Origin: Escherichia phage vB_EcoS-611R4
Sequence record: ON470587
DNA: 20,345 nt
Direction: 5' to 3' (one strand)
How positions within the stretch are numbered: the stretch's first letter is position 1; every line of letters begins with the position of its first letter. The notes under the pieces are model-generated. The model worked only from the letters and a program-made list of their open reading frames with translations. It was not told the origin of the DNA and ran no database searches. Positions 1 through 14,378 of the stretch are shown here, in pieces. The position numbers were made by a program, and so were the translations under genes.

Positions 1-15
1 TTTGTGGGGTCAGCA

Positions 16-480
16 ATGAACAGAGTAACCGCGATTATCTCCGCTCTGGTTATCTGCATCGTCGTCTGCCTGTCATGGGCTGTTAATCATTACCGTGATA
101 ACGCCATCGCCTACAAAGAACAGCGCGACAAAAATGCCAGAGAACTGAAGCTGGCGAACGCGGCAATTACTGACATGCAGATGCGTCAGCGTGATGTTGC
201 TGCGCTCGATGCAAAATACACGAAGGAGTTAGCTGATGCGAAAGCTGAAAATGATGCTCTGCGTGATGATGTTGCCGCTGGTCGTCGTCGGTTGCACATC
301 AAAGCAGTCTGTCAGTCAGTGCGTGAAGCCACCACCGCCTCCGGCGTGGATAATGCAGCCTCCCCCCGACTGGCAGACACCGCTGAACGGGATTATTTCA
401 CCCTCCGGGAACGACTGGTAATGATGCAGGCCCAACTTGAAGGTGCTCAGCAATACATAACCGAGCAGTGTTTAAAGTAA
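16..480 (+). CDS. Rz: Rz i-spanin (inner-membrane spanin subunit, lysis)
   Basis: ORF track 4..480; first ATG at 16 gives [23 protein letters not shown]... (N-terminal TM helix, then coiled-coil periplasmic domain). Near-identical to phage lambda Rz as I recall it. Contains the embedded +1-frame Rz1 ORF, the diagnostic spanin arrangement. The upstream endolysin gene lies outside the window. Confidence 0.9.
236..421 (+). CDS. Rz1: Rz1 o-spanin (outer-membrane lipoprotein), embedded in Rz in the +1 frame
   Basis: ORF 236..421 (61 aa) [24 protein letters not shown]...: signal peptide with lipobox VVGC, proline-rich mature part ([15 protein letters not shown]). Entirely nested in Rz, as in lambda. 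Confidence 0.85.
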
Positions 481-617: not shown

Positions 618-2075
618 ATGAATACATCTCATGTAAGAGTTGTTACTCATATGTGTGGGTTCCTGGTTTGGCTCTATAGTCTTTCAATGTTGCCACCAAT
701 GGTTGTAGCATTGTTTTATAAAGAAAAAAGCCTGTTCGTTTTCTTTATAACTTTCGTTATATTTTTTTGCATTGGTGGCGGAGCGTGGTATACAACTAAG
801 AAATCTGGCATTCAATTACGTACCCGTGATGGGTTTATTATAATTGTAATGTTTTGGATTTTGTTTTCTGTTATTAGTGCATTCCCTTTATGGATTGACT
901 CAGAACTTAATTTAACGTTCATTGATGCTCTGTTTGAAGGGGTTTCTGGAATAACAACAACAGGAGCAACTGTAATTGATGATGTTAGTTCATTACCTCG
1001 GGCATATTTGTACTATCGGTCACAGTTAAATTTTATAGGTGGTTTAGGAGTTATTGTTCTGGCGGTTGCTGTATTGCCATTATTGGGTATTGGTGGTGCA
1101 AAGCTTTATCAGTCAGAAATGCCGGGGCCATTTAAGGATGACAAACTCACTCCCCGCCTGGCCGATACGTCACGGACACTGTGGATAACTTATTCTTTAT
1201 TAGGTATTGCTTGTATTGTCTGTTATAGACTTGCAGGAATGCCTTTGTTTGATGCTATTTGTCACGGGATTTCCACAGTTTCGCTTGGTGGTTTCTCAAC
1301 TCATAGCGAGAGTATCGGATATTTTAATAACTATTTGGTTGAGCTGGTGGCTGGTTCTTTTTCCCTGCTATCGGCTTTCAACTTCACTCTTTGGTATATT
1401 GTTATTAGCAGGAAAACGATAAAACCTTTAATCAGAGATATTGAACTTCGTTTCTTTCTGTTAATAGCCTTAGGGGTGATCATTGTTACCTCTTTCCAGG
1501 TCTGGCATATAGGTATGTATGACTTGCATGGAAGTTTTATTCATTCGTTTTTTCTTGCCAGCTCCATGCTCACTGATAATGGTTTAGCTACGCAGGATTA
1601 TGCAAGTTGGCCCACGCACACGATAGTGTTTTTGCTGTTGTCAAGTTTCTTTGGGGGATGTATAGGTTCAACTTGTGGTGGAATTAAGTCACTTCGATTT
1701 CTTATACTTTTCAAACAAAGCAAACACGAGATAAATCAGCTTTCTCATCCCAGAGCGTTGTTGAGTGTAAATGTAGGAGGGAAGATAGTTACAGATCGTG
1801 TAATGAGGTCTGTATGGAGTTTCTTTTTTCTTTATACTCTCTTCACGGTGTTTTTTATACTGGTGTTAAATGGTATGGGATATGATTTTCTTACATCATT
1901 TGCAACAGTGGCTGCATGTATTAATAATATGGGATTAGGTTTTGGGGCTACTGCATCGTCATTCGGAGTGCTTAATGACATTGCAAAATGTTTAATGTGC
2001 ATAGCTATGATTCTTGGTCGCCTTGAAATTTATCCTGTTATTATATTGTTTTCAGGTTTTTTTTGGCGCTCCTAA
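618..2075 (+). CDS. trkG: TrkG/TrkH-family potassium uptake membrane protein (phage moron)
   Basis: ORF 600..2075; polytopic membrane protein with repeated pore-loop glycine motifs (SGITTTGATV, LGGFSTHSES, TCGGIKS, NMGLGFGA) typical of the TrkH/KtrB superfamily. From MNTSHVRVV... it matches my recollection of E. coli Rac-prophage TrkG (485 aa), which also sits directly after an Rz/Rz1 pair. Start uncertain: ATG 618 (homology) versus TTG 600, which has a better SD (AAGGTGG at 587..593). Gene is visibly AT-rich relative to its flanks. Confidence 0.85.
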   Translation: MNTSHVRVVTHMCGFLVWLYSLSMLPPMVVALFYKEKSLFVFFITFVIFFCIGGGAWYTTKKSGIQLRTRDGFIIIVMFWILFSVISAFPLWIDSELNLTFIDALFEGVSGITTTGATVIDDVSSLPRAYLYYRSQLNFIGGLGVIVLAVAVLPLLGIGGAKLYQSEMPGPFKDDKLTPRLADTSRTLWITYSLLGIACIVCYRLAGMPLFDAICHGISTVSLGGFSTHSESIGYFNNYLVELVAGSFSLLSAFNFTLWYIVISRKTIKPLIRDIELRFFLLIALGVIIVTSFQVWHIGMYDLHGSFIHSFFLASSMLTDNGLATQDYASWPTHTIVFLLLSSFFGGCIGSTCGGIKSLRFLILFKQSKHEINQLSHPRALLSVNVGGKIVTDRVMRSVWSFFFLYTLFTVFFILVLNGMGYDFLTSFATVAACINNMGLGFGATASSFGVLNDIAKCLMCIAMILGRLEIYPVIILFSGFFWRS

Positions 2076-2161: not shown

Positions 2162-2195
2162 CCCCAGTAGCACTGGCTGCTGGGGTGCGTTTTAT
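2162..2195 (+). terminator. putative rho-independent terminator downstream of trkG
   Basis: Inverted repeat CCCCAGTAGC / GCTGCTGGGG (10-bp stem with one G.U, loop ACTG) at 2162..2185, followed by TGCG then TTTTATT. Fits moron architecture (own terminator). Confidence 0.4.
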
Positions 2196-2212: not shown

Positions 2213-3004
2213 ATGAGCGAGAAATTAAAGATAGTCTATCGCCCATTACAAGAATTGTCACCGTATGCGCACAACGCCAGGACGCACAGCCCTGAGCAGG
2301 TGGCACAACTGGTAGAAAGTATTAAGCAATTCGGCTGGACTAATCCGGTGCTGATTGACGAAAAGGGCGAAATTATTGCGGGTCACGGTCGTGTTATGGC
2401 GGCTGAAATGCTCAAAATGGATTCTGTTCCGGTCATTGTTCTGTCTGGCCTGACGGATGAGCAGAAAAAGGCGTACCGCCTGGCAGATAATCGCCTGCCG
2501 ATGAATGCTGGCTGGGATGAAGATCTGTTGCGGATGGAGCTGTCGGACCTAATCAATGCTGATTTTGATGTCTCCCTGACAGGCTTCATCCCGACAGAAA
2601 TTGATGAACTGTTGACGGATGTTTTGCCCGGTACAGGAAATGAGGAGGAGCCGTATACGACGAAAATTGATACGCCTGTTTATGAGCCGTCGGGCGGTAA
2701 ACCGGATATCAGTGAACTGTACGACGATACGAAAACTCAGGAGCTGATCAGCCGGATACGTTCGGCGTCCCTTGAGCCTGATATTGAGAAATTCCTCCTG
2801 TGTGCGGCAGAACGTCACACGGTGTTTAATTTCAGCAGAATTGCGGACTATTACGCTCACGCCCCCTCTGAAATTCAGTGTTTTTTCGAGGAGTCGGCGC
2901 TGGTGATCATTGATTATCAGCAGGCTATTGAAAATGGATTTGTCCGGATGACGCAGCGCATGGTGGAGATCATGCATGGTGGTGAGGAGGAGGAATATGC
3001 GTGA
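2213..3004 (+). CDS. ParB-like nuclease-domain (ParB/Srx fold) protein with uncharacterised C-terminal domain
   Basis: ORF 2213..3004 (263 aa). The N-terminal ~100 aa carry ParB N-domain hallmarks: YRPLQELSPYAHNARTH (box I-like) and GHGRVMAA (counterpart of the ParB GERRxRAA arginine-finger box), then DEQKKAYRLADN. The acidic C-terminal half has no recognisable motif. Same position as ynaK next to trkG in K-12 Rac, as far as I recall. Confidence 0.75.
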   Translation: MSEKLKIVYRPLQELSPYAHNARTHSPEQVAQLVESIKQFGWTNPVLIDEKGEIIAGHGRVMAAEMLKMDSVPVIVLSGLTDEQKKAYRLADNRLPMNAGWDEDLLRMELSDLINADFDVSLTGFIPTEIDELLTDVLPGTGNEEEPYTTKIDTPVYEPSGGKPDISELYDDTKTQELISRIRSASLEPDIEKFLLCAAERHTVFNFSRIADYYAHAPSEIQCFFEESALVIIDYQQAIENGFVRMTQRMVEIMHGGEEEEYA

Positions 3005-3929
3005 TGATTTTTGCGCCTTTATTCTGACTCACGGGCGACCGGACAAAGTTCTGACTTACCGGACGTTGCGTCGTGCTGGCTATACCGGGAAAATTTTTAT
3101 CGTTGTTGATGATGAAGATAAGACACGGAATCAGTACATGGCTGAATTTGGTGAACAGGTGCTGGTGTTTTCCAAAGCCGATATCGCCAGTCGTTTTGAC
3201 GAAGCCGATAATTTCTGTGACCGCCGCTCAATTTTTTACGCCCGTAATGCCTGTTTCGACCTGGCAAAACTGGTCGGGTGTAAATACTTCATTCAGCTCG
3301 ATGATGATTATCACGAGTTCCAGTTTCGGGTGGATCGCAACTATGACCAGGCCTATTTTCCGATAAGGAAACTGGATGCGATCCTTTCTGAAATGCTGGC
3401 GTACTACGAATCAATACCTGCTCTTTCCATCGCTATGTCGCAGGGCGGGGATTTTCTTGGTGACAATGGCGGCCATGCTTCGTGGGTGAAACGCAAGGCA
3501 ATGAACAGCTTTATCTGTTCGGTTGATCGACCGTTCTCATTCATGGGGCGCATTAACGAGGATGTGAATACGTACACGAATCTCGGTCGCTGTGGTGAAT
3601 TGTTTATGACGATCGGTGCTGTCCAGTTAGGGCAGAAACAGACGCAGAAAAACAGCGGCGGAATGACCGAGCTGTATCTGGATTCCGGAACCTACGTTAA
3701 AAGTTTTTACTCCGTCATGTATGCGCCGTCGTGCGTAAAAATCTCACTGATGGGTGCCAGCCATAAACGCATTCACCATCAGGTCACCTGGAACAACGCT
3801 GCAGTAAAAATCCTTCACGAAAAATACAGGAAGAAGACACCCTGCATATCAATGGGGGTGACAAATGATTCCGTATTCGAAAGTCGAGTCTCTGGCAGCG
3901 TGCCGGATGACTGCACAACAAATCGCTGA
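2997..3929 (+). CDS. putative GT-A-fold nucleotide-sugar glycosyltransferase-like protein (uncharacterised)
   Basis: ORF track 2976..3929; preferred start ATG 2997, preceded by AGGAGGAGG and overlapping the ParB-like stop. N-terminal secondary-structure pattern matches GT-A enzymes: beta1 FCAFILTHGR, helix, beta2 KIFIVVDDED, then a DxD-like motif YFIQLDDDY and a later acidic motif INEDVN. No TM segments, no SAM or P-loop motif. Function assigned by inference only. Confidence 0.55.
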   Translation: MRDDFCAFILTHGRPDKVLTYRTLRRAGYTGKIFIVVDDEDKTRNQYMAEFGEQVLVFSKADIASRFDEADNFCDRRSIFYARNACFDLAKLVGCKYFIQLDDDYHEFQFRVDRNYDQAYFPIRKLDAILSEMLAYYESIPALSIAMSQGGDFLGDNGGHASWVKRKAMNSFICSVDRPFSFMGRINEDVNTYTNLGRCGELFMTIGAVQLGQKQTQKNSGGMTELYLDSGTYVKSFYSVMYAPSCVKISLMGASHKRIHHQVTWNNAAVKILHEKYRKKTPCISMGVTNDSVFESRVSGSVPDDCTTNR

Positions 3930-4116
3930 CGTTCTGGATGTTGATCTGAACCGACTGAAAGAAAATCGGGAAGCAATGACAGATTTTTATGCGGCCATCC
4001 GTAAGGGCAGAGCGAAAGGTGAAGCCGAGTTACGAGCGGCATTGTTTAAGCTTGCCAGAAAAGGGGATGCCTTTGCTCTGCGCGAACTACTCAGGGTGGA
4101 TAAAAATCAGGACTAA
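3865..4116 (+). CDS. hypothetical small protein (83 aa), possibly DNA-binding, immediately upstream of the small terminase
   Basis: ORF 3865..4116; ATG preceded by GGGGGTGA; overlaps the 3' end of the GT-A-like gene by 65 nt in another frame; stop lies 3 nt before the small terminase ATG. Helical, basic C-terminal half (AAIRKGRAKGEAELRAALFKLARKGD). No family recognised. Confidence 0.5.
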   Translation: MIPYSKVESLAACRMTAQQIADVLDVDLNRLKENREAMTDFYAAIRKGRAKGEAELRAALFKLARKGDAFALRELLRVDKNQD

Positions 4117-4119
4117 CTG

Positions 4120-5214
4120 ATGAGCAGACCGGACTGGGGGGCGTTGCAGCAGGAGTATATTGCTGAATACACCCGCTCCGGTATATCTCCGGTGGCATGG
4201 TGTGAAGCAAGGGGACTGAATTACGCAACAGCCCGTCGTTACATCAAAAAAACTCCGAAAAATGCGCAGACAGAAATGTGCAAAACTGCGCAAAAAAGTG
4301 CGCAGAAAAAATCTGCGCAGACTGCACAAAAGCGGAACGAAAAATCTCAGGAAAAAAAGCCAGTATTCGATGCGGGCCTGAATGAGGGCGACGCGGAGGA
4401 ATTTTCGTTCTGTCCCGATGAATTCGGCATTTCTGACCAGCAGGCTAAGTTTGCGATGCTTGTTGCTCAGGGTAAAAAGCCGACAGAGGCGTACCGACTA
4501 GCCGGTTATGAGGGGCAAGGTGCGACAGCTAACAGCAACGCCAGTCGTATGCTTAGAAATGCCAGGGTTTTTCGCGCTATCAGCTACTTCCGCAATCAGT
4601 ACCAGAAACGCTATACCGCAGACCTGGATTTACTAGTGAGTCAGTTGATGGCTATTGTCCTGGCCGACCCCAATCAGCTTGCACAATTTCGCCGTGTTAA
4701 CTGCCGTTATTGCTGGGGCGAGAATCATCTCTACCAGTGGCGCGATATAGCAGAATTCGACAAGGCAGCGGCGCAGGCTTCCAGAGATGGCAAACCCGAA
4801 CCGGAATATGGAGGCCTCGGCTTTGTTGATAACGCCATACCCAATCCGGACTGCCCGAAGTGCTGCGGTGAGGGAACGGGACAGCTTTATATGGCTGATA
4901 CCACTCTGCTTGATGGGGATGCGCGGCAATTATATGCAGGGGCAAAATTCGGAAAATTCGGCGTTGAGATCCTGCTGGAGGATAAGGCTGCCGCCCGGCG
5001 TGAATTGTTGCGTTTGCTTTCTGCTGGCGGGGATTTATGTGCAGATAAGCGGCTACAGGAACTGGAAATTGAACGGCGCAGAATGGAAAACCAGAAGCTG
5101 CGCAAAGAGATCGAAACGGTGGAAGATAATGAACATCCCCAGCCTGTGGCGATCAATATTAATGTGGTTGATGCCAGAGTAAGGAGTGATGAAGATGATC
5201 TCTCCGACGCTTAA
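4120..5214 (+). CDS. terminase small subunit (HTH N-terminus, low-complexity linker, C-terminal oligomerisation region)
   Basis: ORF 4120..5214 (364 aa), directly upstream of and overlapping the large terminase. N-terminal HTH-like segment (GISPVAWCEARGLNYATARRYIKK), then an AQK-rich linker encoded by TGCGCA repeats, then a coiled-coil C-terminus. Assignment by position and architecture. Confidence 0.7.
   Translation: MSRPDWGALQQEYIAEYTRSGISPVAWCEARGLNYATARRYIKKTPKNAQTEMCKTAQKSAQKKSAQTAQKRNEKSQEKKPVFDAGLNEGDAEEFSFCPDEFGISDQQAKFAMLVAQGKKPTEAYRLAGYEGQGATANSNASRMLRNARVFRAISYFRNQYQKRYTADLDLLVSQLMAIVLADPNQLAQFRRVNCRYCWGENHLYQWRDIAEFDKAAAQASRDGKPEPEYGGLGFVDNAIPNPDCPKCCGEGTGQLYMADTTLLDGDARQLYAGAKFGKFGVEILLEDKAAARRELLRLLSAGGDLCADKRLQELEIERRRMENQKLRKEIETVEDNEHPQPVAININVVDARVRSDEDDLSDA
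4262..4335 (+). repeat. degenerate tandem repeats TG(C/T)(G/A)CA(G/A)A(A), about six copies at ~12-bp spacing, inside the small terminase gene; candidate pac / TerS recognition site
   Basis: Copies start at 4263, 4277, 4287, 4299, 4314 and 4323 (TGCGCAGA, TGTGCAAAA, TGCGCAAAA, TGCGCAGAAA, TGCGCAGA, TGCACAAAA). Alternatively just the DNA image of the AQK peptide repeats. Confidence 0.3.
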
Positions 5215-6496
5215 TGTGCCTCAGGCGCGATTTCTTTCAATGCCCCATAAATTTAAAGCCTATATTGCTGGTTTTGGCTCGGGCAAAACATGGGTTGGGT
5301 GTGGCGGCATATGCAAGGGGATTTGGGAGCATCCAGGTATAAATCAGGGATATTTTGCGCCAACGTATCCCCAAATTCGCGATATTTTTTACCCTACAGT
5401 GGAAGAAGTTGCTGCTGACTGGGGATTGAACGTAAAAATTAATGAGGGAAATAAAGAGGTTCACTTTTATTACGGACGCCAGTATCGGGGAACCACTATC
5501 TGCAGATCGATGGAGAAGCCACAAACGATCGTCGGTTTCAAAATTGGTAATGCGTTGGTGGATGAACTGGACATTTTGCCGAAGGAAAAAGCCAGAACGG
5601 CGTGGCGCAAGATAATTGCGCGTATGCGTTATAAGATTGATGGACTTCGCAACGGTATTGACGTTACAACCACGCCGGAAGGATTCAAATTTGTCTACGA
5701 GCAGTTTGTTAAAGCCGTGCGTGAAAAAACAGAGCTGGCCTCACTGTATGGTCTGGTGCAGGCATCTACTTTCGATAATGAAAAGAACCTGCCAGCAGAT
5801 TACATTCCTTCGCTTCTTGAATCATACCCTCCAGAGCTGATTAAAGCCTATCTGCGAGGACAGTTTACTAACCTGACAAGTGGTACTGTTTACCATCAGT
5901 TTGACCGGAAACTGAATAATTGCGAAGAAGTGGAGCAGCCAGGGGAGCCGATTTATATTGGGATGGATTTTAACGTTGGAAAGATGGCGGGAATCGTCCA
6001 TGTGCTGCGTTTGGGGCTTCCATGTGCGGTAACTGAAATCATCAATGCCTACGATACGCCGGATATGATCCGCATCATTAAAGAACGCTTCTGGCTGTAT
6101 GATGGGAATGATTACCGGAAAGTGAGGGAAATTTATATTTATCCAGATGCTTCCGGGGATTCCAGAAAATCAAGTAACGCAAGTACGACGGATATAGCCC
6201 AGCTTAAGCAGGCTGGTTTTAACGTTGTGGTGAACAGCTCGAACCCGCCAGTAAAAGATCGCGTTAACTCAATGAATGCAATGTTCTGCAATGCCAATGG
6301 TGAGCGTCGCTATAAAGTTAATGTGAAGCGTTGCCCGTTATATGCCGAATCTCTGGAGCAACAGGTCTGGGATGAGAAGGGGGAGCCTGATAAAAAATCT
6401 GGCAATGATCACCCGAATGATGCCGGAGGTTATTTCATCGTTAAGCAATTCCCTATTGTCAAACCGACCGGAAGAGTCACATCACTTCGGATTTAA
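5186..6496 (+). CDS. terminase large subunit (ATPase/nuclease)
   Basis: ORF 5186..6496 (436 aa). Walker A P-loop AGFGSGKTW near the N-terminus, Walker B-like hydrophobic stretch plus acidic pair (NALVDELD), acidic C-terminal nuclease-like region (YIYPDASGDS). Overlaps the end of the small terminase gene. Confidence 0.85.
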   Translation: MMKMISPTLNVPQARFLSMPHKFKAYIAGFGSGKTWVGCGGICKGIWEHPGINQGYFAPTYPQIRDIFYPTVEEVAADWGLNVKINEGNKEVHFYYGRQYRGTTICRSMEKPQTIVGFKIGNALVDELDILPKEKARTAWRKIIARMRYKIDGLRNGIDVTTTPEGFKFVYEQFVKAVREKTELASLYGLVQASTFDNEKNLPADYIPSLLESYPPELIKAYLRGQFTNLTSGTVYHQFDRKLNNCEEVEQPGEPIYIGMDFNVGKMAGIVHVLRLGLPCAVTEIINAYDTPDMIRIIKERFWLYDGNDYRKVREIYIYPDASGDSRKSSNASTTDIAQLKQAGFNVVVNSSNPPVKDRVNSMNAMFCNANGERRYKVNVKRCPLYAESLEQQVWDEKGEPDKKSGNDHPNDAGGYFIVKQFPIVKPTGRVTSLRI

Positions 6497-6498
6497 TT

Positions 6499-7905
6499 AT
6501 GGCTGATATATCAACACCCAACCTCGACTATAACGATATGCTGGAGGCGTGGGATATTAACGACGCACTGATGGGCGGTACGCTTGAAATGCGCAGGCAG
6601 GGGGAAAATTATCTCCCAAAATGGCCTAACGAAGATGAAGACGCTTATAAAAAACGCCTGTCTGTGGCTACGCTACTTCCTGTGTATGAAGAAAGCATCA
6701 AGCAAAATATTGGGCGCATATTTGCAGAGCCGACAGTATTGAGTGAGGAAACGCCGGCAAAAATCAGGGAATATGCAGAAAATATCGACATGGAGGGAAG
6801 CCGACTGGATGTGTGGGCGCAGCAATTTTTCAGCCTCGCATTTCAGTATGGTGTGGCACATGCGCTGGTGGACTATCCACGAACGGATATGAAAGAGATT
6901 CGGACAAAAGCCGATGAAAACGCGGCCGGTAGTCGTCCGTACGTTACGATGCTGAATCCACGCCAGGTTATTGGATGGAAATCGAAAGTTGAAAAAGGGA
7001 AAGTTGTTCTCACTGATTTGCGTATAAAAGAGGTCATCATTATTGATGGTGATGATTTCGGGCAGAAGAAGGTGGAGCAGATCCGCCATATTATGCCCCG
7101 TCGAGTTGAAATTTATCGACGTAGCGAAGGCACTAATGGCGAATCTGTCTGGACGCTTCATGAGTCATGGAATACCAGCCGTGATGATATTCCTCTGGTA
7201 ACACTGTACACGAAGAAAACAGGATTTATGCGTGGTACACCGCCATTGCTTAATCTTGGCTTGCTGAATATCAAGCACTGGCAAAGCCAGAGCGAGCAGG
7301 ACAATATTCTTCATGTTGCCCGCGTTCCATTGCTGGTGGCCTACGGGCTGGACAGGAATGAAGAACTGACGGTTGGTGCATCCACCGCTACGATTTTTGA
7401 GGACAGAACAAAAAATGGCCTCGAATATGTTGAACATAGTGGCGCAGCGATAGAATCTGGCGAAACATCACTTGAGAAGCTGGAAAATCAGATGCGTCAT
7501 GCCGGCGCTAAACTTCTGCGTGCTGAAAATACATCCACCAAATCTGTTGATCAGACTAATGAAGAGCGAATGCAGGAAAACTCGCCGCTTTATACAATGG
7601 CGAACTCCCTCGAAGATGCCCTCGATAATATTCTCCAGATAATGGCGGAATGGATCGGAGAGAGTTGCGGTGGCAATGTGGATGTGCGCACTGAACTGGA
7701 TGTATCTGCCCAGGTGTTTGACTCATCCTCCGCGCTGGCTGTTCAGTCATTGCGTCAGGGCGGTGATATACGTCAGATTGATGCGATTCGGGTGTTGCAG
7801 GCGTTGAAATTTATCGATCAGGATTCCCGTCCAGAGGAAGTGATCGATGAATTAAAAAATCAGAGTGTAATGCTGATGGAAATCAATGATGCAAACCGTG
7901 AATGA
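6499..7905 (+). CDS. portal protein
   Basis: ORF 6499..7905 (468 aa) immediately after the large terminase (ATG 2 nt after its stop), followed by a MuF-like gene: the canonical terminase-portal-MuF order of headful-packaging phages. Size and acidic C-terminus are consistent. Assignment mainly by position. Confidence 0.7.
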   Translation: MADISTPNLDYNDMLEAWDINDALMGGTLEMRRQGENYLPKWPNEDEDAYKKRLSVATLLPVYEESIKQNIGRIFAEPTVLSEETPAKIREYAENIDMEGSRLDVWAQQFFSLAFQYGVAHALVDYPRTDMKEIRTKADENAAGSRPYVTMLNPRQVIGWKSKVEKGKVVLTDLRIKEVIIIDGDDFGQKKVEQIRHIMPRRVEIYRRSEGTNGESVWTLHESWNTSRDDIPLVTLYTKKTGFMRGTPPLLNLGLLNIKHWQSQSEQDNILHVARVPLLVAYGLDRNEELTVGASTATIFEDRTKNGLEYVEHSGAAIESGETSLEKLENQMRHAGAKLLRAENTSTKSVDQTNEERMQENSPLYTMANSLEDALDNILQIMAEWIGESCGGNVDVRTELDVSAQVFDSSSALAVQSLRQGGDIRQIDAIRVLQALKFIDQDSRPEEVIDELKNQSVMLMEINDANRE

Positions 7906-13916: not shown

Positions 13917-14378
13917 ATGAGGTTATGGATGTTTATTCTTAATCAGAAAATTATCATCGGTGGAGAACGCTGGTTTACGCCAATGAAGGACTTAAAACCT
14001 GTAGACGGGTTAAAACTGTTGGTGGCAAGCAGCGATAACGATCAGTATCGCTCCCGTAATGCATTAATCCGTCGTCACATTGAGAAAATGGATGCCAGTT
14101 TGCACGTCGGAACGAAGGAGTTTGATATTTCAAAGGTTTCCGAGGTAGATTCTGTTGATGATTTACTCATTGATAATGCTGCTCGTTATCTGCTGAAAGA
14201 CTGGAAAGGGGTTGGTGAACTGGTTAATGGTGCTGAGGTTGCACTGGAATATACGCCAGAACGAGGGATCGCGCTGCTTAAGCAGAATCCAGAGTTGTAC
14301 TGGCAGATCCTTGCAGAAGCAGCCAGCATCGCCCAGGGTAAAGAGCAGCAGAAGCAGGATACGATAAAAAAGCCATAG
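13917..14378 (+). CDS. tail assembly chaperone (lambda gpG analogue)
   Basis: ORF 13917..14378 (153 aa), acidic, located between the major tail and tape measure genes. Its last codons contain the slippery heptamer A_AAA_AAG, and a downstream -1-frame ORF is open from 14342. Alternative start ATG 13929. Confidence 0.7.
   Translation: MRLWMFILNQKIIIGGERWFTPMKDLKPVDGLKLLVASSDNDQYRSRNALIRRHIEKMDASLHVGTKEFDISKVSEVDSVDDLLIDNAARYLLKDWKGVGELVNGAEVALEYTPERGIALLKQNPELYWQILAEAASIAQGKEQQKQDTIKKP

Follow-up and report, generated by a model that had tools for sequence, protein, structure and literature searches.

A ParB-domain protein and a TAGT-family glycosyltransferase form a conserved phage gene pair with a possible role in DNA modification

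Directly 5' of their terminase genes, Rac-type lambdoid prophages of Escherichia coli can carry two overlapping genes that raise a simple question: what would a phage do with a ParB-like protein coupled to a sugar transferase? We examined this pair in a stretch of 20,345 nucleotides from Escherichia phage vB_EcoS-611R4 (record ON470587; hereafter the window), which represents the late region of an intact prophage of this type. The first gene is ynaK; the second, ORF-B, encodes a predicted glycosyltransferase and is called the GT gene below. We find that the GT belongs to the TET-associated glycosyltransferase (TAGT) family, and that its constant partner across viruses is the C-terminal module of YnaK, not the ParB domain. 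Whether the two proteins form a DNA-tethered complex that glycosylates phage DNA is, in our judgment, evenly balanced.

Both are real genes and not chance open reading frames (ORFs), with more than 8000 homologues of the GT and 1189 clusters of the YnaK C-terminal module at 50% identity. Their dN/dS ratios are low (0.06-0.18 for the GT and 0.16 for ynaK), so both are functional genes under purifying selection. An earlier reading, made from the sequence alone, had located the two genes correctly and described the second as starting at an ATG that overlaps the ynaK stop. The overlap stands, at 8 nt between the ATG at 2997, which is also the RefSeq start, and the end of ynaK (stop TGA at 3002-3004); the predicted length of 311 residues does not, as the protein has 310. 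Neither protein contains a hydrophobic 19-residue window above 1.6, compared with 74 such windows in the TrkG control, so both look soluble, as had been proposed for the GT. A Gtr-type seroconversion or envelope glycosyltransferase was considered and rejected: a hydrophobic segment is missing from both proteins, and the Rac region of E. coli SE11 has no Gtr-like neighbours.

A TAGT-family glycosyltransferase

Against the Pfam TAGT model (PF20691), the GT scores 121.1 bits, well above the cut-off of 27.5 (E = 7.6e-35). The match spans residues 8-222 and profile positions 4-205 of 205, and every GT homologue listed carries the same domain. The GT also matches phrog_842 (1.1e-103). A sequence search against the PDB returned nothing at E <= 1, and in an NCBIfam scan neither YnaK nor the GT rose above the cut-offs. 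A PADLOC scan gave no match to the GT, which is therefore not a catalogued defence gene.

The AlphaFold2 (AF2) model of the GT, computed from a 22-row alignment, has a predicted local distance difference test (pLDDT) score of about 90 over residues 1-150 and is poor after residue 217. Searched against the PDB with Foldseek, it matches mainly GT-A glycosyltransferases and a few nucleotidyltransferases; its structural neighbours include SpsA (8e-5), glycogenin, SunS/ThuS, ColGalT1 and LARGE1. Against BFVD, the best matches are TAGT-domain phage proteins (2e-21, TMq 0.68). Profile and structure searches thus agree with the GT-A fold suggested by the sequence-only reading and place the protein in the TAGT family, not in a non-glycosyltransferase fold.

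The four motifs singled out in that reading are all present: FILTHGR (residues 8-14), IFIVVDDED (33-41), IQLDDDY (99-105) and INEDVN (186-191). Within them, R14, D102-D103-D104 and E188-D189 are invariant in 22 homologues that are 60-82% identical to the GT. These residues correspond to the catalytic signature R...DDD...ED(Y/F) of phage GT-A DNA glycosyltransferases and trypanosome JGT (Pyle 2023 bioRxiv 10.1101/2023.12.21.572611), except that the residue after ED is V, not Y/F. Residues 216-310 have an isoelectric point (pI) of 9.27, and the shallow alignment leaves pLDDT below 50 in the C-terminal region. Profile, fold and motifs together make the GT a member of the TAGT family. The contextual hallmark of that family, linkage to TET/JBP, is missing in the contexts covered here.

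Public names for the protein vary. RefSeq lists the E. coli protein as 'hypothetical', UniRef uses 'GREB1-related', and RefSeq phage records call its homologues 'beta-glucosyl-HMC-alpha-glucosyltransferase'. The last is a name transferred from T-even phages, not a finding, and we flag it here as a mis-transferred annotation.

The constant partner of the glycosyltransferase

The N-terminal part of YnaK has the ParB/Srx domain that the sequence-only reading recognised in this 263-residue protein, with GHGRVMAA at residues 57-64. It passes the Pfam ParB_N cut-off (28.9 bits against 26.3) and matches phrog_620, 'ParB-like partition protein' (8.5e-91). In the AF2 model, a ParB fold (residues ~1-136) is followed by a disordered acidic linker (137-154, pLDDT <50) and a small helical domain (~160-245, with pLDDT ~90-97 over residues 160-230). 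Foldseek matches are dominated by the ParB domain and include Noc (1.5e-5), ParB-CDP (4e-5), PadC, KorB and sulfiredoxin; the CTP-binding proteins ParB, Noc and KorB are the nearest in fold. The arginine-box motif G57-H-G-R60 and the putative nucleotide-binding motifs N21-A-R23 and A91-D-N93 are consensus positions in the sequences of 147 homologues, and are candidate counterparts of the CTP-binding and hydrolysis residues of MxParB.

What kind of ParB domain is this? Residues 3-141 match phrog_498, a family of ParB-DNA methyltransferase fusions (1.2e-50), and residues 10-144 match the PADLOC model MTase_II (2.2e-38). The domain is therefore of the kind attached to DNA-modifying enzymes, in keeping with the general association that the sequence-only reading had invoked. 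YnaK itself is not a methyltransferase: the matches to the fusion families end at about residue 144, and the rest of the protein has no methyltransferase match. It is not a canonical partition ParB either, as it scores 38.5 bits against TIGR00180, below the cut-off of 58.45, and the SE11 prophage region has no parA. YnaK is a member of the ParB/Srx superfamily other than a partition ParB.

The remainder of YnaK had been described as an unassigned acidic C-terminal domain. It turns out to be the conserved core that partners the GT. This C-module comprises a linear motif in the linker (YTxKIxxPxYEP) and the helical domain, and has no Pfam match across 147 members. Among 42 homologues, the motif never varies at Y148, Y157 and E158, and conservation reaches at least 90% at K151, I152, P155 and P159; in the helical domain, R201-H202, Y214 and L230-V-I-I-D234 are conserved. 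The pI values of the two partners are complementary, with a median of 8.8 for the GT and 4.5 for the C-module. The module constitutes an unnamed domain family of more than 1000 clusters.

We counted the two genes as linked when a C-module gene lay within about 50 nt upstream of the GT gene or overlapped it. By this measure, the C-module is directly upstream of the GT in 79 of 80 IMG/VR loci, where GT identity ranges from 56 to 100%, and it lies 3.2 kb away in the remaining one. Species genomes in GTDB give the same picture (51 of 55 loci): one exception has its C-module 1.7 kb upstream, and among the other three are a locus interrupted by the end of its contig and another with a truncated GT. 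The GTDB loci span Enterobacterales, Bacteroidales, Clostridia, Veillonella, Desulfovibrionaceae, Chlorobi, Acidobacteriota, Actinomycetota, Saccharibacteria and one archaeon. In IMG/VR the linkage holds even in loci without a recognisable terminase, portal or trkG, and conservation is often higher in the C-module than in the ParB part. In cultured viruses, too, a hidden Markov model (HMM) of the C-module recognises the gene that lies just before the TAGT; these are L. gasseri phage phi jlb1, L. delbrueckii phage c5, Nocardia phage NTR1, a Porphyromonas phage, haloarchaeal virus HHTV-2 and Vibrio phage pv27. Around the TAGT of Aeromonas phage 65, which is T4-like, the HMM has no match. The two genes thus occur together almost without exception outside the E. 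coli element. The linkage is near-obligate, and the constant partner of the GT is the C-module of YnaK, not its ParB domain.

One IMG/VR phage departs from the usual gene layout. In locus L077 (10001-11716), the TAGT is C-terminally fused to a class-I S-adenosylmethionine (SAM)-dependent methyltransferase domain (Methyltransf_12/23/25/11, residues ~421-509), which could methylate the transferred sugar or the acceptor; its ParB/C-module gene lies 3.2 kb upstream, not adjacent.

A search with the C-module alone revealed a second architecture. Many of the matches are stand-alone proteins of about 131 residues, and in every context that we read such a gene directly precedes a TAGT gene. Their other neighbours are replication genes (DnaB, primase-helicase, ResIII helicase and RusA, with a phage clamp and SSB as well in Vibrio phage pv27). 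The YTxKIxxPxYEP motif is present in ParB-fused and stand-alone partners alike. About 16 residues before it, 66 of the 120 matches listed start with Q-x-x-[LMI]-F, typically as MKQxxLFG; several other stand-alone partners retain NLFG, and a start of the same type is found in the genome loci L122, L133 and L134. MKQxxLFG resembles QL[SD]LF, the beta-clamp-binding motif of bacteria. The ParB-fused form usually sits immediately 5' of terminase genes, as in E. coli, Lactobacillus, Nocardia and Porphyromonas phages and in most of the divergent metagenomic loci. The two architectures therefore define a variable N-terminal element (a ParB-type domain in one, a clamp-binding-like peptide in the other) and a constant part made up of the C-module and the GT. 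They suggest that the ParB domain and the putative clamp-binding peptide may stand in for each other in holding such enzymes on DNA.

A candidate DNA-modifying complex and its acceptor

We propose that the products of the pair are the two subunits of a glycosyltransferase that is tethered to DNA and acts on progeny phage DNA ahead of packaging, a model to which we assign about an even chance of being right. ORF-B would be the catalytic subunit, a soluble, basic GT-A enzyme of the TAGT family that depends on a metal and a nucleoside diphosphate (NDP) sugar, and YnaK would be its obligate adaptor and activator. The acidic C-module would bind the GT, with the disordered YTxKIxxPxYEP peptide and the acidic helical domain as its probable contacts, and the N-terminal ParB-type nucleotide-binding domain would hold the complex on double-stranded DNA. 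In related phages, the short clamp-binding-like peptide would replace the ParB domain and recruit the host clamp. With late expression alongside the terminase genes, concatemeric replicated DNA would be coated with sugar just before packaging, and the nucleases of the next host would fail to cut it. The model fits an earlier proposal in which ParB proteins guide the modification machinery during packaging.

Several points weigh against this model. Canonical DNA bases carry no hydroxyl, and we know of no glycosyltransferase that acts on an unmodified base. The SE11 Rac region from recE to gpJ contains no Tet_JBP dioxygenase, thymidylate-synthase-like hydroxymethylase or C5-methyltransferase. 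Among 150 large ORFs from 15 divergent loci, no enzyme for hydroxylated bases recurs in the best 25 of 65 families; those that do recur are terminases, portal, replication proteins and N6/N4 methyltransferases. A hidden 5mYOX dioxygenase could be present in the metagenomic loci, since some 5mYOXs escape the Pfam model. As for tethering, no Pfam domain beyond ParB, and hence no helix-turn-helix DNA-binding domain, was found in the 147 members of the YnaK family, and no relevant parS-like palindrome was found around the ynaK-GT genes. That MKQxxLFG may bind a clamp is read from its resemblance to the QL[SD]LF motif.

The substrates of characterised TAGT enzymes are 5-hydroxymethyl pyrimidines or a sugar that such a base already carries. 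The stand-alone contexts show no source of such bases either; locus L082 has a C5-methyltransferase two genes upstream, and L086 has an N6/N4-methyltransferase. With no 5mYOX, hydroxymethylase or C5-methyltransferase at hand, the acceptor is unlikely to be 5-hydroxymethylcytosine (5hmC) or 5-hydroxymethyluracil (5hmU), and because no enzyme that forms either base is present, the acceptor may be a canonical base. In a published survey, about 65% of GT-containing contigs likewise had no 5mYOX or ThyS neighbour (Pyle 2023 bioRxiv 10.1101/2023.12.21.572611). We put forward, as a tentative and rather doubtful extension of the model, that the sugar is placed directly on a canonical, non-hydroxymethylated base or another DNA atom with no prior oxidation, by a TAGT that rides on a sliding clamp of its own (ParB-type) or, by way of MKQxxLFG, on the beta clamp of the host. 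If true, canonical-base glycosylation would be a chemically new class of DNA modification, found in phages of many bacterial phyla and of archaea and latent in about one-sixth of sequenced E. coli.

The alternative that survives best, although we consider it unlikely, is that the GT glycosylates a protein and not DNA. The acceptor could be YnaK itself, modified in a glycogenin-like manner on the invariant Tyr/Thr of YTxKIxxPxYEP, or a protein of phage or host that associates with DNA (terminase, portal, sliding clamp or defence protein), to which the ParB domain or the clamp peptide brings the GT. Such an acceptor would suit a phage in which no hydroxylated base is available and a partner whose Tyr/Thr-rich peptide is both invariant and disordered. 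For GREB1, O-GlcNAcylation of estrogen receptor alpha (ER-alpha) by the TAGT domain has been reported (PMC7968844), which also counts against a DNA acceptor. Glycogenin, SunS/ThuS and ColGalT1, which modify proteins or peptides, are among the structural neighbours of the GT, but these matches are generic to GT-A enzymes (~1e-4), and its closest relatives by both sequence and fold are the phage TAGTs. Moreover, YnaK has the ParB subtype that occurs in fusions with DNA methyltransferases, the GT is a basic protein whose C-terminal lobe is likewise basic and is conserved, and a substrate that is always encoded beside its enzyme would be unusual outside self-priming systems.

A second alternative is that the GT is an ordinary 5hmC or 5hmU (or glucosyl-hmC) glycosyltransferase whose modified base comes from an unrecognised, divergent dioxygenase elsewhere in the phage, or which acts on the DNA of other hmC phages. 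TAGT family membership and the PHROG annotation favour this view, as do the thousands of phage 5mYOX-like proteins that escape the Pfam Tet_JBP model and the C5-methyltransferase near the cassette in L082. It is difficult to reconcile with the SE11 Rac region, where no candidate dioxygenase, hydroxymethylase or C5-methyltransferase is found between recE and gpJ, and with neighbourhoods that are completely variable outside the two-gene cassette. The TAGTs of T4-like Aeromonas phages are only ~23% identical to the GT, and the one checked for a partner, in phage 65, has none. Published TET-linked phage GT-As worked in E. coli with a methyltransferase (MT) and TET alone (Pyle 2023 bioRxiv 10.1101/2023.12.21.572611), whereas this clade always keeps its partner. 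We regard an ordinary hydroxymethyl-pyrimidine glycosyltransferase as improbable.

Least probable of all, and very much so, is that YnaK is a ParB-type nuclease or site-binding protein that serves the terminase (pac/cos recognition or cutting) or prophage maintenance with a GT of unrelated role: a slot immediately 5' of TerS/TerL does recur in five phyla, and nicking has been reported for ParB-domain proteins, but many partners have no ParB domain and lie among replication genes far from any terminase, the GT is tracked by the often better conserved C-module and not by the ParB domain, there is neither a parA neighbour nor a parS-like repeat, and the gene overlap, together with a linkage that is close to absolute, speaks for one function of the pair. 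The dispensability of ParB and its replacement among replication genes also disfavour the packaging nuclease with a sugar-transferase partner that the sequence-only reading had raised.

Glycosylation of DNA by the pair without a hydroxymethyl precursor would, if confirmed, open a new route to hypermodified DNA and provide a new anti-restriction strategy in common temperate phages, intact Rac prophages among them. Even with a protein acceptor, the cassette represents an uncharacterised and very widespread phage function. ParB and GT neighbours appear in published phage surveys (including Pyle 2023 bioRxiv 10.1101/2023.12.21.572611). In the literature covered, which excludes Iyer et al. 2013 (NAR 41:7635), probably the earliest to note ParB/TAGT contexts, we found no experimental study of the pair (under ynaK, or ParB with glycosyltransferase), and the cassette, the C-module and the clamp-motif variant are neither described nor tested.

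Genomic setting and related systems

The pair lies 3' of Rz/Rz1 and a trkG insertion and directly 5' of the genes for TerS, TerL and portal (Table 1). It is 100% identical in E. coli SE11, many other strains and records of induced phages. The full pair is found in 889 of 5426 complete E. coli genomes (~16%), and at least part of it in 1580. Sixteen of the 1596 matching places in these genomes are on plasmids and not on the chromosome; the Rac-type element, or a fragment of it, therefore also occurs on plasmids or phage-plasmids.

Table 1. Positions of the ynaK-GT pair, its predicted domains and motifs, and the surrounding genes in the window
Feature	Position	Strand	Basis or remark
Rz/Rz1 lysis genes	4-480		
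trkG	618-2075		TrkH-family potassium transporter, Pfam 5e-145
Terminator-like GC-rich hairpin, then T-run	2162-2185	+	between trkG and ynaK
ynaK, 263 aa + stop	2213-3004	+	Pfam ParB_N, phrog_620, RefSeq name ynaK
ParB/Srx (ParB-CTPase-type) N-domain of YnaK, residues 1-136	2213-2620	+	AF2 fold, Foldseek, motifs
Linear motif Y-T-T-K-I-D-T-P-V-Y-E-P of YnaK, residues 148-159	2654-2689	+	in disordered acidic linker
Helical C-domain of YnaK, ~residues 160-245	2690-2947	+	constant GT partner module, no Pfam family
Shine-Dalgarno-like GAGGAGGAGG	2984-2993	+	3 nt before GT ATG (2997), inside ynaK end
GT gene (ORF-B), 310 aa + stop	2997-3929	+	Pfam PF20691, phrog_842, AF2 model
DxD motif D102-D103-D104 of GT (GATGATGAT)	3300-3308	+	predicted metal/NDP-sugar site; invariant in 22 homologues
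Conserved basic C-terminal GT region, ~residues 216-265 (TQ..GGMTELY..GTYVKSFY...P...RIHH..W)	3642-3791	+	outside Pfam TAGT model
Small ORF, 69 aa by RefSeq (SE11 CDS)	3907-4116	+	overlaps GT 3' end; phrog_309 8.3e-23, computed on the longer 83-aa ORF 3865-4116 that contains the 69-aa CDS
TerS, small terminase subunit	4120-5214	+	Pfam Terminase_2, phrog_51
TerL	5186-6496		
Portal	6499-7905		head and tail genes after it

Many related prophages have the pair without a trkG or Rz homologue, and because so many keep it without trkG, the latter looks like a separately acquired moron. The small ORF that overlaps the end of the GT gene accompanies the pair down to ~60% identity. Its match covers positions 145-218 of the 319 in the phrog_309 profile, the middle of a longer family of small terminases, and it may be a split or auxiliary small-terminase component. 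In the early region of the SE11 Rac prophage, outside the window (L001 7843-9525), a DUF262 protein (GmrSD N-terminal, ParB-like) and a TPR protein are encoded beside an IS3 element. DUF262 domains are found in type IV restriction enzymes that target glycosylated DNA, and a link between this protein and the cassette is conceivable.

In E. coli K-12, the Rac prophage has suffered an 11.56-kb deletion that joins window positions 2466 and 14027 (4631/4630 in the K-12 locus, L093), with one end point in ynaK and the other in the ORF at 13917-14378. As a result, ynaK is an 87-residue stump, and nothing is left of the GT, terminase, head and tail-tube genes. The sequence-only reading had taken K-12 ynaK and ydaY for degraded remnants of the pair. 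This is right for ynaK; ydaY is a remnant of the tail region. It corresponds to the ORF at 13917-14378, which lies 3' of the tail tube gene in SE11, and is therefore not what is left of a glycosyltransferase.

Decay has also left other traces of the cassette. Long homologues that could have been natural YnaK-GT fusions (P0004, P0008, P0021 and P0029) proved to be in-frame deletion chimeras from decayed prophages. With P0141, they form a set in which the GT is joined to TerS, to the C-terminus of portal or to proteins of the head or tail, and which includes a Yersinia 'lysis protein' made up of Rz and the YnaK C-module. The in-frame chimeras point to recurrent deletions with end points inside the cassette in decaying prophages.

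How does the pair compare with known systems? Its nearest counterparts are the TET-linked phage TAGT/GT-A DNA glycosyltransferases (PF20691; Burke 2021 PMC8256090; Pyle 2023 bioRxiv 10.1101/2023.12.21.572611) and JGT, the base-J glucosyltransferase of kinetoplastids, with which the GT has in common its family, its GT-A fold and the R...DDD...ED signature. Like the pair, the TET-linked phage enzymes are phage-encoded and often near ParB and terminase genes. However, they are associated with 5mYOX, whereas the GT has no 5mYOX, C5-methyltransferase or hydroxymethylase neighbour. The GT also has an obligate small partner, and none is found beside the one T-even-type TAGT checked (Aeromonas phage 65).

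The beta-glucosyl-HMC alpha-glucosyltransferase of T2/T6 falls in the same broad family as the GT by PHROG 842 and PMC13390438, and in T6-like phages the second glucose on glucosyl-hmC is inferred to come from a TAGT member (PMC13390438). A tblastn search with the GT gave no T2 or T6 match at E <= 1e-3, and homologues from T4-like Aeromonas phages are ~23% identical. The T6 enzyme needs glucosyl-hmC from the hmC pathway, whereas the SE11 Rac region from recE to gpJ contains no such genes. Animal GREB1 (PMC7968844) has the TAGT domain in common with the GT but is a large eukaryotic protein without a ParB partner; it counts here as evidence that proteins can serve this fold as acceptors.

For YnaK, the ParB-DNA methyltransferase fusions (phrog_498, MTase_II; PMC12704722, PMC5512222) are also phage or prophage proteins, and their N-terminal ~140 residues are homologous to its own. 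In these fusions the ParB domain is joined to the catalytic domain. In YnaK it is joined to an adaptor module, and the catalyst, the GT, is separate and translationally coupled. A functional parallel may be ParB176, which is specifically required on double-stranded DNA by the phage thymine dioxygenase 5mYOX176 (O'Toole 2026, PMC13229309). ParB176 consists of a nucleotide-binding domain (NBD), a disordered linker and a C-terminal domain (CTD), has no DNA-binding domain, and is encoded beside a post-replicative DNA-modifying enzyme (PMC13229309). YnaK has the same NBD-linker-CTD layout, likewise lacks a DNA-binding domain and has its gene beside that of its putative client; the likeness described here is one of layout. 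Unlike in the case of ParB176, the C-module of the YnaK family also exists without a ParB domain. By this analogy, the client of YnaK would be a glycosyltransferase where that of ParB176 is a dioxygenase and, if so, the repurposing of ParB as an activator extends from dioxygenases to glycosyltransferases.

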